A DNA stretch of 4,852 nucleotides, taken from IMG/VR virus record IMGVR_UViG_2648501669_000010, positions 1-4,852 of that record; one strand, 5' to 3'. Of the stretch, positions 50 to 3,456 are shown one piece after another. The notes below the pieces were generated by a model. That model had not been told where the DNA came from and did not search any database. It worked only from the letters and a program-made list of their open reading frames with translations. A program made the position numbers and the translations under genes. The stretch's first letter is position 1. Every line of letters starts with the position of its first letter. The DNA is from a virus (taxonomy: Duplodnaviria > Heunggongvirae > Uroviricota > Caudoviricetes).

Positions 50-571
50 ATGACCACTATTACCAGAGAAAGCGCGGAGATTAAATCATTCATCACTGGT
101 TTCCTGAGCGATCCGGCGCACGATAACCAATCTTCAAACAGCCTGCTTACTAATGTGTTTCGTATCGCACTGGCGTCACTGGAAGCAGAGCCAGTGGCGT
201 GGAAGGCAACCTTCACGCAAATTGACAATGAATATAATACGTTCACTGCTCTGTATTCTGACAAAGCAGAAGTCGAACGGTGGGTGCGATTGCATGAAAT
301 AGGTGACTTTCGGGCAGAAATAACACCGCTTTACGCAGCGCCGTCAGCGCCGGTAATTCCGGATGGTTGGATAAGCTGTAGTGAGCGGATGCCAGAGGAC
401 GGTCAGCACGTAATTATTTTATGTGATGGCGCATTCGTTCTTTATGCGCAATATCGAGACGGTGAGTTTTTTGATGTCGTCCGCAATGGTGAGGAGTTCT
501 TCGAAACGCAGAGCCGCAATGTAACCGACTGGATGCCTCTACCAGAACCGCCGCAGGAGGTGAGTCGATGA
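50..571 (+). CDS. DUF551-domain phage protein (accessory early-region protein of unknown function)
   Basis: 173-aa ORF with ATG at 50 preceded by a purine-rich SD (aaggaaag, 37-44). The C-terminal part (DGWISCSERMPEDG...VTDWMPLPEPP) matches my recollection of the DUF551 signature common in lambdoid prophage nin/early regions. Family assignment is from memory, not a search. Confidence 0.65.
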   Translation: MTTITRESAEIKSFITGFLSDPAHDNQSSNSLLTNVFRIALASLEAEPVAWKATFTQIDNEYNTFTALYSDKAEVERWVRLHEIGDFRAEITPLYAAPSAPVIPDGWISCSERMPEDGQHVIILCDGAFVLYAQYRDGEFFDVVRNGEEFFETQSRNVTDWMPLPEPPQEVSR

Positions 572-614
572 CCTGGCCTGAAGCATTCACAACAATTGCT
601 GCGGGTGCTTGAGG

Positions 615-650
615 CTATCTGCCTCAGGCATGAACACCAACGGCAGATAG
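615..650. repeat. Perfect 9-bp inverted repeat (ctatctgcc / ggcagatag) with 18-nt spacer, between the DUF551 gene and mok
   Basis: Read directly: 615-623 ctatctgcc and 642-650 ggcagatag are exact reverse complements. No T-tract follows on either strand, so this is not an intrinsic terminator. It could be an RNA stem-loop in the hok leader or a dimeric protein-binding site. Confidence 0.5.
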
Positions 651-714
651 AGAAAAGCCCCAGTTAACATTACGCGTCCTGCAAGACGCTTAACATTAAT
701 CTGAGGCTCAATCT

Positions 715-927
715 ATGAACGGCAAATCTAGGTTAGCCTCTTACGTGCCGAAAGGCAAGGAGAAGCAGGCTATGAAGCAGCAAAAGGCGATGTTAGTCGC
801 CCTGATCGTCATCTGTTTAACCGTCATAGTGACGGCACTGGTAACGAGGAAAGACCTCTGTGAGGTACGAATCCGAACCGGCCAGACGGAGGTCGCTGTC
901 TTCACAGCTTACGAACCTGAGGAGTAA
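715..927 (+). CDS. mok: Mok-like reading frame (N-terminally extended form of Hok, modulator of killing)
   Basis: 70-aa ORF in the same frame as hok, starting 57 nt upstream. This is the same architecture as chromosomal mokC/hokC, where Mok is an N-terminal extension of Hok. The extension KGKEKQAMKQQK resembles the MokC extension as I recall it. GAGG at 703-706 sits upstream of ATG 715. Confidence 0.5.
   Translation: MNGKSRLASYVPKGKEKQAMKQQKAMLVALIVICLTVIVTALVTRKDLCEVRIRTGQTEVAVFTAYEPEE
772..927 (+). CDS. hokD: Hok/Gef-family type I toxin (small membrane-depolarising peptide), HokD/RelF-like
   Basis: 51-aa product MKQQKAMLVALIVICLTVIVTALVTRKDLCEVRIRTGQTEVAVFTAYEPEE: one hydrophobic transmembrane helix followed by the conserved Hok periplasmic tail (RKxLCEVRIRTGQTEVAVFTAYE). 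It is almost identical to E. coli HokD/RelF as I recall it. Strong SD AGGAG at 758-762, about 9 nt before ATG 772. Confidence 0.85.
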   Translation: MKQQKAMLVALIVICLTVIVTALVTRKDLCEVRIRTGQTEVAVFTAYEPEE

Positions 928-995
928 GAGACCCGGCGGGGGAGAAATCCCTCGCCACCCCTGATGTGTCAGGCATCCTCAATGCACCCGCACTT

Positions 996-1022
996 AACCC
1001 GCTTCGGCGGGTTTTGTTTTTT
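996..1022 (+). terminator. Rho-independent terminator downstream of hok (3' end of the hok mRNA)
   Basis: GC-rich hairpin cccgc(998-1002)-ttcg-gcggg(1007-1011), extendable by A:T pairs, followed directly by the T-tract ttttgtttttt (1012-1022). Confidence 0.75.
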
Positions 1023-1094
1023 CTGAGCATCCTGGTTTACAATCCACATGCCAGCCTGAACAACTGGCACCTGCTGCGCCAGCAGAGATAGCAG

Positions 1095-1367
1095 ATGGCG
1101 CACAAAACCAAATTTCACAAATCTGATACCGACCTTACCATCCGGCACGGGCGGCGTTCACGCGCATTTAAAACCGACTGGTTCCAGCATGACCCCTGCA
1201 CTGAAGAACAGGCCGAATGGCTGATTCAGAACTACCGCAGACGTGGCTATGAGTTTCAGAAAGACCTCAGTCTTGACTTCCGACACTGGATAATTTCCGT
1301 CAGGCTCCCCTATTCCGAACGCCCACCACGCCCGTCCCGCACATTCCAGCAACGCATCTGGAGGTAA
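1095..1367 (+). CDS. Small basic prophage protein, Rem-like (unknown function)
   Basis: 90-aa ORF rich in Arg/His (predicted basic). Its stop TAA (1365-1367) sits inside the GGAGG...GTG start context of the next gene, indicating translational coupling. Its position between hok and the DUF968 gene mirrors the hokD-rem-ydfU order I recall from the E. coli K-12 Qin prophage. The sequence-level assignment to Rem is from memory and tentative. Confidence 0.5.
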   Translation: MAHKTKFHKSDTDLTIRHGRRSRAFKTDWFQHDPCTEEQAEWLIQNYRRRGYEFQKDLSLDFRHWIISVRLPYSERPPRPSRTFQQRIWR

Positions 1368-2430: not shown

Positions 2431-2790
2431 ATGGGGATTGAATTTGTTTTGCCTTACCCGCCGACGGTGAACACCTACTGGCGACGTCGTGGCAGTACAT
2501 ATTTTGTATCAAAAGCCGGTGAGTGTTATCGCCGGGATGTGGCGCTAATTGTTCGCCAGCAGCGACTGAAATTAAACCTGTCCGGAAGGCTGGCAATAAA
2601 AATTACTGCGGAGCCACCGGATAAGCGCCGTCGTGACCTAGACAATATCCTGAAGGCACCGCTGGATGCGCTGACGCATGCTGGACTACTTATAGACGAC
2701 GAGCAGTTTGATGAAATCAATATAGTGCGCGGTTTGCCTGTTCCTGGTGGGCGGCTGGACGTGAAGATTTACAAAATTGAAAGTGAGTGA
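2431..2790 (+). CDS. rusA: Crossover junction endodeoxyribonuclease RusA (Holliday junction resolvase)
   Basis: 119-aa product with clear RusA-family motifs (LPYPPTVNTYW, PDKRRRDLDNILKAPLDALT, GGRLDV), the right length of about 120 aa, and SD AGAGG at 2420-2424 before ATG 2431. It sits in the canonical lambdoid position immediately upstream of Q. Confidence 0.9.
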   Translation: MGIEFVLPYPPTVNTYWRRRGSTYFVSKAGECYRRDVALIVRQQRLKLNLSGRLAIKITAEPPDKRRRDLDNILKAPLDALTHAGLLIDDEQFDEINIVRGLPVPGGRLDVKIYKIESE

Positions 2791-3359
2791 GCGTAAATAT
2801 GATATACCCGGAAATTACAGGCAAAAGCGGTGAGCATTTACGCCTGAAAACGCTGGAAAGTGTCTGGCTCCAGGGAAAACTGCGTATGTGGGGGCGTTGG
2901 TCGTATATTGGCGGCGGTAAGACGGGAAATATGTTCAACCAATTACTGACCTCTAAAAAGCTGACAAAAACGGCAATTAACGAGGCGCTCCGGAGGATGA
3001 AAAAAGCGGGTCTGGACAAACCTGAACTTGAGGCTTTTTTGCGGGATATGATCAACGGCAATCAAAAAAGCTGGCTGGCACATTGTACCGATTCAGAGGC
3101 GTTAATAATCGACAGGGTTATTGGTGAAGCCCTGGCAGGTTATCCCGGGCTGCTCAATGTCCTGAGTCAGCGTTATGTGGGGCGGGGGATGACTAAGCGC
3201 AAAATGGCTGAACTGCTGAATGATGCACACCCGGAATGGAGTTTAAGAACCTGTGAAAGACGCATTGAGCATTGGCTAAAGGTGGCAGAATTTATTTTGT
3301 ACAAACCAATGGTTATGGCTTTTGGTATAGAGAAAAAAAGTTATTGCTTTTTGACGTAA
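2787..3359 (+). CDS. Late-gene antitermination protein Q (phage 82 / QuuD-type family)
   Basis: 190-aa ORF whose GTG start overlaps the rusA stop (gTGA at 2787-2790); an alternative start is ATG 2799. The N-terminal region (LESVWLQGKLRMWGRWSY...NQLLTSKK) resembles the LERWGAW...GLITSK motif I recall in QuuD/phage-82-type Q proteins. Synteny supports it: rusA upstream and an intrinsic terminator just downstream, as expected for Q - PR' - tR'. Confidence 0.7.
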   Translation: MSVNMIYPEITGKSGEHLRLKTLESVWLQGKLRMWGRWSYIGGGKTGNMFNQLLTSKKLTKTAINEALRRMKKAGLDKPELEAFLRDMINGNQKSWLAHCTDSEALIIDRVIGEALAGYPGLLNVLSQRYVGRGMTKRKMAELLNDAHPEWSLRTCERRIEHWLKVAEFILYKPMVMAFGIEKKSYCFLT

Positions 3360-3431
3360 AAACTGCTTCAATTCCGGTACGCTTCGCAAAGCTGTACCGC
3401 GAGGCGAATAGCAGACATGGACATTTGAAAG

Positions 3432-3456
3432 AGCCCGCTTTTTGCGGGTTTTTTTT
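3432..3456 (+). terminator. Rho-independent terminator downstream of Q (candidate tR'-like late terminator)
   Basis: Hairpin cccgc(3434-3438)-ttttt-gcggg(3444-3448) followed by an 8-T tract (3449-3456), about 75 nt after the Q stop codon. In lambdoid phages the late promoter PR' and its Q-antiterminated terminator lie in this position. Confidence 0.7.

Follow-up and report, generated by a model that had tools for sequence, protein, structure and literature searches.

A probable hok/mok/sok cassette of the hokD/hokW lineage with a deletion at the hok promoter site

The archetype of the hok/sok modules is the plasmid-borne parB locus of R1, in which tac, ucb, the Sok-target hairpin, the mok Shine-Dalgarno (SD) sequence, mok, dcb together with the Sok promoter, hok, a 3' stem-loop and fbi follow one another in this order. 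For R1 hok mRNA, a closed full-length form has been described in which the 5' and 3' ends are paired (PMC9841398). A second well-described system is hokW-sokW of Sp5 (Sakai prophage 5), an Stx2 phage of E. coli O157:H7, whose toxin HokW has 44% identity with R1 Hok. Mutation of the sokW -10 box in a 'pro-less' construct unmasked HokW toxicity and abolished antitoxin activity, while sokW supplied in trans partly restored growth. [quoted passage not shown] A third relative, hokD (relF) of the Qin prophage in E. coli K-12, is accompanied by relB-relE. A survey reports that HokD is toxic, counts 6290 Hok homologues in IMG/VR and states a four-fold enrichment of hok genes in prophages (bioRxiv 10.1101/2025.08.07.668861).

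Here we analyze a stretch of viral DNA of 4,852 nucleotides, referred to as the window, in which positions 603-1020 very probably form a type I toxin-antitoxin cassette, a canonical hok/mok/sok module of the hokD/hokW lineage. This high confidence extends to identity and mechanism alike and is built on strong homology; we are less certain about the activity state of the copy. The work covers the identity of sequence elements, their conservation, in-silico pairings and a deletion at the hok promoter site; for the transcription, processing, toxicity and biological role of this particular copy, we infer only what these features and the described systems suggest.

Gene neighborhood and distribution of the cassette

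According to the ORF list and a Pfam search, the plus strand carries every gene of the window. We read the window as the early-right (nin-like) part of a lambdoid prophage, which agrees with the phage early-region location proposed in a sequence-only reading of this DNA. That reading had also named a DUF551 gene as the upstream neighbor and described the locus as uncoupled from relBE. Both statements hold: the DUF551 gene (50-571; PF04448, E=3e-21) lies directly upstream and outside the hok module, its stop codon overlapping the start of a small ORF, and relE is absent within 700 nt upstream of hok. On the other side, the cassette is followed by an ORF for 90 amino acids (1095-1367; PHROG 1212, function unknown), a DUF968/YdfU-like gene (1369-2418), the RusA gene (2431-2790), a gene for a DUF1133/Q-like antiterminator (2787-3359), an ORF for 65 amino acids and a DNA methyltransferase gene that runs off the window end. 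The cassette is carried as a moron, with early genes of the replication side on one flank and the DUF968-RusA-Q genes on the other. Among 88 related loci, DUF551 is the upstream neighbor in 16, relE in 3 and some other gene in 69, while the downstream side varies less, and 56 of the loci have the 90-aa ORF and DUF968 there. When the whole window was compared with complete E. coli genomes, no close match over the entire length was found; the best match is a mosaic with 93.8% identity over 95% of the window.

The cassette itself is common. A megablast search with positions 560-1060 hit 4738 of the 5426 complete E. coli genomes, at a median of two places per genome and at up to ten. The leader is included (at least 80% query coverage) in 3823 of the 5426 genomes, while the K-12-type relE-hokD junction occurs in 1173 of them and in 2 of 80 IMG/VR loci. 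The stand-alone cassette is thus the usual form, from which the K-12 arrangement derives by truncation. The earlier view of the stand-alone state as something unusual has to be given up, as this is the majority form, and the K-12-centered picture needs correction in the same sense: the leader-bearing prophage cassette is the widespread one. The locus is an ordinary, already described prophage hok/sok of the hokD/hokW type. Phage records name it 'MokW', 'HokD toxin', 'host killer protein' or mok/hok. A Sok feature was present in none of the RefSeq/phage records examined, and mok was named in only one. Annotation should read hok, mok and sok of the hokD/hokW type, and not list a bare 'hokD' coding sequence.

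The relationship to the described systems can be specified further. K-12 hokD shares with the window the 3' untranslated region, fbi and the terminator as well as the downstream neighborhood, a small ORF followed by DUF968/YdfU. However, the similarity begins only at window position 758, and the K-12 locus lacks tac, ucb, the Sok gene with its -10 box and the mok start, with relB-relE in their place. The window has all leader elements and no relE and is therefore not of the K-12 relBEF type; the comparison of hokD loci called for in the sequence-only reading leaves the window with the complete leader and K-12 with the truncated one. Like the cassette studied here, hokW-sokW of Sp5 is located in the early region of a lambdoid prophage. 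Its leader is near-identical, its Sok promoter region is identical, and it shares the in-frame mok of 70 codons, the same fbi and an upstream small ORF starting with ATGACCTGGCCTGAAGC. There are also differences. Hok of an Sp5/933W-type phage is identical to the window protein at 46 of 51 positions and differs at the C terminus, with VDYESEK as opposed to TAYEPEE in the window, the Sok-target patch of Sp5 is a different allele, and the 933W-type phage examined diverges after fbi and has no GC-hairpin terminator, which is present in the window. With R1, the window shares the element set and order from tac through fbi, a comparison based on the Rfam model and published descriptions (PMC9841398). 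The R1 module is plasmid-borne and the window copy resides in a prophage. The matches listed by a search for distant plasmid copies were hokD-type copies or else short ones to the region of the Sok promoter and the SD sequence.

Toxin frames and switch elements of the hok messenger

The toxin gene hok (772-927) encodes 51 amino acids and is preceded by the SD sequence AAGGAG (757-762). The protein belongs to the HOK_GEF family (PF01848, E=1.8e-23, 82.3 bits with a cut-off of 22) and matches K-12 HokD at 50 of 51 positions, V9I being the single change, such that its description as essentially HokD was accurate. The mok frame (715-927) spans 70 codons, is in frame with hok and ends at the hok stop codon. 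It is intact, as had been noted, and an in-frame mok of this length is present in 66 of 75 homologues. The SD sequence of mok, GAGG (703-706), lies 8 nt upstream of its ATG at position 715. The Mok/Hok protein matches the whole profile of PHROG 251 ('MokW-like host killing', category moron) with E=2e-32; this entry describes a protein family only and is silent on RNA elements and promoter. By analogy with the described systems, the Hok protein encoded in the window would be expected to be toxic, and translation of hok is probably coupled to that of mok.

The predicted full-length mok-hok mRNA extends from about G603 to about position 1020, a range delimited by the start of the Rfam match, the fold and the terminator. 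It nearly coincides with the mok/hok locus that had been outlined at 600-1022, and every feature described in that reading is found where it had been placed, at a level well beyond chance. The sequence-only reading had advised a search with a Sok covariance model, and Rfam RF01794 (named 'sok') indeed matches, with 108.7 bits (gathering score 59, E=6.9e-25) over model positions 1-157 of 157. The match (603-777) is to the plus strand, which is hok-sense, and it takes in the leader of the hok mRNA. The consensus structure of the model consists of the tac/ucb stem, the Sok-target hairpin and a stem formed by the mok SD sequence and dcb. Two further Rfam families gave matches below threshold and were discarded: ceN48 (25 bits, threshold 70), which overlaps the hok leader, and isrK (27, 19.8 and 18.9 bits, gathering score 50), with sub-threshold matches at 936-1017 and 3381-3454 that sit on terminator-type hairpins.

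Folding of the 418-nt RNA (603-1020), another of the checks that had been proposed, gave a free energy of -172.8 kcal/mol (z -7.7). In the minimum free energy (MFE) structure, the 5'-terminal tac element (603-614) forms a 12-bp helix with fbi (CCUCAAUGCACCC, 977-989), to which it is complementary except for one bulged base. In the same structure, the mok SD sequence is paired with ucb, the anti-SD box AAGCCCCAG (655-663), a box that also figures in the Rfam consensus and in constrained folds. The partner of ucb is the mok SD sequence in the closed form and tac, then part of the processed RNA, in the open form. The dcb box AGCCUC (735-740) is complementary to the mok SD region (703-708), and the two form a stem both in the Rfam model and in the enforced open fold. 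All boxes for the alternative closed and open pairings are thus present, and the open form is that of the Rfam consensus. Further downstream, a 3' stem-loop (936-957) appears in the MFE structure. Its helix (helix 14) is 99.1% paired across the homologues, with alternation between G-U, A-U and G-C, and by analogy with R1 (PMC9841398) it may protect the processed mRNA as its terminal hairpin. The unit is closed by a Rho-independent terminator (996-1023), made up of a 7-bp stem (996-1013) with five G-C pairs followed by TTGTTTTTTC, which confirms the clean intrinsic terminator read from the sequence.

When the open form (tac/ucb plus SD/dcb) was enforced, it cost 9.9 kcal/mol in the full-length RNA and 3.4 to 3.7 kcal/mol after removal of the 3' end including fbi, where it was still not the minimum. 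In the folding model, this shift goes in the right direction for processing. Unconstrained MFE folding of the 3'-truncated RNAs did not reproduce the open tac/ucb form and instead yielded a 5' hairpin, the counterpart of the metastable structure described in the literature. Across 75 homologues, 94.5% of the modeled pair cells were paired compared with 32-42% in a control with slid partners, which is modest evidence, speaking for conservation and constraint and falling short of proof of structure. Double changes were found in nine pairs, mainly in the Sok-target hairpin, the CUAUCUGCC/GGCAGAUAG stem and the terminator. The Sok-target hairpin is 21 nt shorter in the PPompW-type lineage. In the same 75 sequences, tac is invariant and the tac/fbi helix (helix 1) is 99.8% paired, its pairs being virtually invariant and free of covariation. 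The weakness of the covariation signal is explained by the similarity of the homologues, which are more than 88% identical.

The Sok antitoxin gene

Whether an antitoxin RNA exists had been left open in the sequence-only reading. The minus strand carries, opposite the mok start, what its sequence identifies as a complete Sok antitoxin gene. Its promoter comprises the -35 hexamer TTGCCT (758-753), a 17-nt spacer and the -10 hexamer TAACCT (735-730), and it matches that of sokW. A simple sigma-70 scan of the minus strand detected no Sok promoter above its thresholds. The same thresholds also miss the proven sokW promoter of identical sequence, and the Sok promoter was therefore assigned by homology. 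Of the promoter search suggested earlier, the matrix scan thus came up empty, while homology with sokW supplied the position. The assignment is strengthened by oligonucleotides published for Sp5 hokW-sokW (PMC8621323): primer YO-597 (sokW) is identical to the minus strand of the window at 731-760, the oligonucleotide used to probe sokW RNA, YO-592, is almost the same as 693-722, and primer YO-351 differs from 601-650 at one of 50 positions. The two promoter hexamers are the same in 53 of 75 homologues, and other variants (TTGACC / TAATCT) are nearer to the consensus.

The predicted Sok RNA would extend on the minus strand from about 723, a start derived from the position of the -10 hexamer, to 652. 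In its fold, about 15 unpaired nt at the 5' end are followed by a long hairpin and then by a GGGGCUUUUC tail, with a free energy of -30.0 kcal/mol (z -5.2). We read this RNA as one that is probably expressed constitutively in the present copy.

The hok promoter deletion and the possible role of this copy

Alignments with E. coli 52F4 and with an Sp5/933W-type phage revealed that 84 nt are absent from the window between ...CATTCACAAC and AATTGC..., the junction (593/594) being located just upstream of the hok transcription start. Sp5-type phages keep these 84 nucleotides along with a TAGAAT promoter and a full 27-aa small ORF. In the window, the deletion removes the -35 box and the first half of the -10 box (T-12) of the hok promoter. 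It also shortens the hydrophobic small ORF of 27 codons (MTWPEAFTTVGIALAVALVVYSICRWG) to a remnant of 14 (568-612, MTWPEAFTTIAAGA), as seen from a pairwise alignment with an undeleted homologue (L001) and a census of loci; the intact 27-aa version exists in 15 of 87 related loci. In 86 leader-bearing loci, the 16 nt preceding GCTTGAGGC almost always start with TAGAAT (or TAAAAT, TAGGAT, TAAGAT), and most of these loci have a -35 box of the TTGGCG or TTTGCG type 17 nt upstream. Among the 86, AACAAT at the -10 position is confined to the window, whose upstream sequence is unrelated. A simple promoter scan found no hok promoter at the homologous place in the window, and the same scan found TTGGCG-17-TAGAAT in phage Evi.

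What now occupies the promoter site is a hybrid (568-596) of ATGACC (568-573), a 17-nt spacer and AACAAT (591-596). For comparison, the R1 hok -10 box is intact (TATGAT), and there a T-12C exchange abolishes transcription (PMC9841398); the window base at -12 is A. A -10 box of the type TANNNT (-12 to -7), as expected for an own sigma-70 hok promoter, is lacking in the window. On the other hand, the hybrid retains A-11, T-7 and the TGAC core, matches at 8 of 12 positions and offers an ANNNNT box resembling TANNNT, such that it may still work as a hok promoter, if only a weak one. With the hok promoter lost, autonomous transcription of hok is doubtful, and the sequence elements of its post-transcriptional control are intact. 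The missing box weakens the word 'autonomous' and leaves membership in the hok/sok family untouched. The sequence-only suggestion of an autonomous, possibly still regulated module therefore survives in part: leader, Sok gene and 3' fold-back element have been spared, but the deletion has taken away the hok promoter. More generally, the case illustrates that a type I module with an intact appearance can nonetheless be transcriptionally disabled.

The deletion appears to be specific to this copy. Its junction had no contiguous match in the 5426 E. coli genomes, the best match being one in two pieces that spans extra DNA. Exact junction strings of 22 and 32 nt were not found in IMG/VR or in species-representative genomes, apart from a 22-mer in a Lachnospiraceae metagenome-assembled genome, which we regard as a chance match since the contig is unrelated and shows no other similarity. 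No convincing microhomology was detected at the deletion ends. Note that, with a deletion unique to this sequence, an assembly error is possible in principle.

Following the models for R1 and Sp5, the cassette would be expected to work in the following way. Full-length hok mRNA would be locked by the tac-fbi pairing, with ucb holding the ribosome-binding site of mok. Slow trimming at the 3' end would remove fbi and allow the 5' region to refold into the tac/ucb and SD/dcb pairings, thereby exposing mok. The short-lived antisense RNA Sok, produced from its own promoter inside mok, would bind the mok start region and block translation of mok and hence the coupled translation of hok. Upon loss of Sok, the membrane toxin Hok would be made. 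In the present copy, hok mRNA would probably originate weakly from the hybrid ATGACC-17-AACAAT or from read-through of early transcription after induction. The stretch between the DUF551 gene and hok showed no terminator, so read-through into hok is possible, and read-through upon induction would fit the findings for Sp5.

Several roles can be envisaged for such a copy. One, to which we give somewhat less than an even chance, is that of a functional, induction-coupled lysis helper resembling hokW-sokW of Sp5: early transcription would raise hok mRNA and shut off Sok, and Hok would damage the inner membrane and speed up phage release. Lineage and genomic position are shared with hokW-sokW, leader and Sok promoter are near-identical, and all window genes lie on one strand, so that early rightward transcription crosses hok in the sense direction. 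The Sp5 precedent adds the effects of mitomycin C and the halved phage release of the deletion mutant (PMC8621323). However, it is a single study of a single phage with a two-fold effect, and window Hok deviates from HokW at five C-terminal residues. Alternatively, the module may be decaying. The promoter deletion would then have silenced hok and left a remnant, inert or still producing Sok, that is approaching the state of the K-12 hok loci. This is possible, although we consider it rather unlikely. The uniqueness of the deletion, the removal of both the -35 box and T-12, the severity of the T-12C exchange in R1 (PMC9841398) and the matched scan that recovers a promoter in phage Evi and none in the window all point in this direction, and the survey reports chromosomal hok loci as inactive (bioRxiv 10.1101/2025.08.07.668861). 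Yet no other lesion is seen, all transcribed elements and the hok reading frame being intact, the junction keeps an ANNNNT box (A-11, T-7) with a TGAC core 17 nt upstream, and transcripts may enter from the upstream gene for want of a detectable terminator.

A role in prophage retention, by post-segregational killing after loss or excision, or in the exclusion of superinfecting lytic phages by abortive infection, as put forward in the sequence-only reading, appears improbable to us. R1 hok/sok does stabilize plasmids and reduce the plating of T4, as cited in PMC8621323, and the four-fold enrichment of hok genes in prophages given in the survey would agree with such a role. However, the same survey (bioRxiv 10.1101/2025.08.07.668861) states that chromosomal hokA, hokB and hokC gave no post-segregational killing and reports no enrichment of hok near defense systems. 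Moreover, a weakened hok promoter would leave little of the stored hok mRNA which this mechanism requires.

One feature of the leader deserves attention in this context. The 23 nt over the mok start that form the target of the Sok 5' tail (707-729) are hypervariable, with 17 alleles in 75 sequences and a pairwise diversity of 0.35 compared with 0.014 in the hok coding sequence, a difference of about 25-fold. One could imagine that hok is driven only by induction read-through while Sok is made constitutively, and that the alleles at 707-729 represent orthogonal Sok/hok specificity classes. This combined proposal is speculative and, in our estimate, has a low probability of being correct. If true, co-resident prophages would each run a private hok switch with no cross-neutralization. 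In any case, the patch offers a cheap lead on cross-talk among the many hok/sok copies in E. coli genomes. Among co-resident copies, where only two same-genome pairs were available, the Sok-target alleles differ in one pair and are identical in the other.

Variation in the Sok target and the mok frame

The alignment of 75 distinct hok-cassette homologues revealed a hypervariable patch at window positions 707-729 (alignment columns 106-127), a stretch spanning both the start of mok and the site targeted by the 5' tail of Sok. Pairwise diversity in this patch amounts to 0.35, compared with 0.05 in the remaining leader and only 0.014 in the hok coding sequence, and 17 alleles are distinguishable among the 75 sequences. 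Such hypervariability may reflect diversifying Sok/hok specificity among co-resident copies. Two pairs of related hok loci from the same genome were available for comparison, and here the patch alleles differed in one case (L057/L074) and were identical in the other (L043/L066).

The mok frame (equivalent to window 715-771) is not fixed either. It is in frame with hok and encodes 70 amino acids in 66 of the 75 homologues, while eight carry a frame of 19 amino acids that stops near the hok start and a single one a +1 frame of 68 amino acids. This is consistent with the act of mok translation being more important than the sequence of the Mok peptide. In one lineage, formed by PPompW-type prophages (loci L006, L010, L017, L048, L076 and L086), the hairpin of Sok and its target is 21 nt shorter (equivalent to window 663-690) and three compensatory base-pair changes are present at the hairpin base.

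An editing motif in hok and a small ORF upstream

Codon 47 of hok is TAC and is followed by G, yielding TACG (window 910-913), the motif reported for hokB as a site of TadA-mediated A-to-I editing that changes tyrosine to cysteine. A survey (bioRxiv 10.1101/2025.08.07.668861) reports the motif for hokC, hokD and hokE as well, at the corresponding C-terminal position. The HokW-type variant shares the TACG motif with the hok gene studied here.

Directly 5' of hok, 15 of 87 related loci contain a conserved, unannotated small ORF for a hydrophobic peptide of 27 amino acids (MTWPEA[F/L]TTVGIA[M/L]AVALVVYSICRWG), the ATG of which overlaps the upstream gene's stop codon. The ORF is intact at positions 3885-3968 of L001 (E. 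coli 52F4) and 2385-2468 of L005, and is cut to 14 amino acids in the window (568-612). Searches of the 27-residue sequence against PHROG and NCBIfam gave no match.

Terminator stretches and further copies of the cassette

Matches to isrK, a Salmonella prophage sRNA family, at 936-1017 and 3381-3454 scored 27 and 19.8 bits, below the gathering score of 50. Both lie on hairpin-plus-terminator stretches, 3' of hok and 3' of the Q-like gene, respectively, and probably reflect generic terminator similarity. In public records, a 'hypothetical protein' or 'Mobile element protein' is placed on the minus strand where the terminator of hok and the beginning of the following gene lie (window 969-1148; L001 4377-4556; L003, a further related locus, 2876-2998); the annotated ORF is probably a spurious call.

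None of the complete E. coli genomes is close to the window over its full length, the best match, split into three pieces, covering 95% of it at 93.8% identity. The window combines modules, each of them common by itself, into a mosaic. A cassette copy of ~88% identity resides on IncY plasmids with phage genes for RepL, an antirepressor and baseplate (CP088422.1). The record of Actinobacillus phage vB_Apl-pPE4 (PP818812.1), an odd host attribution, contains a hok locus 96.9% identical to the E. coli-type window cassette.
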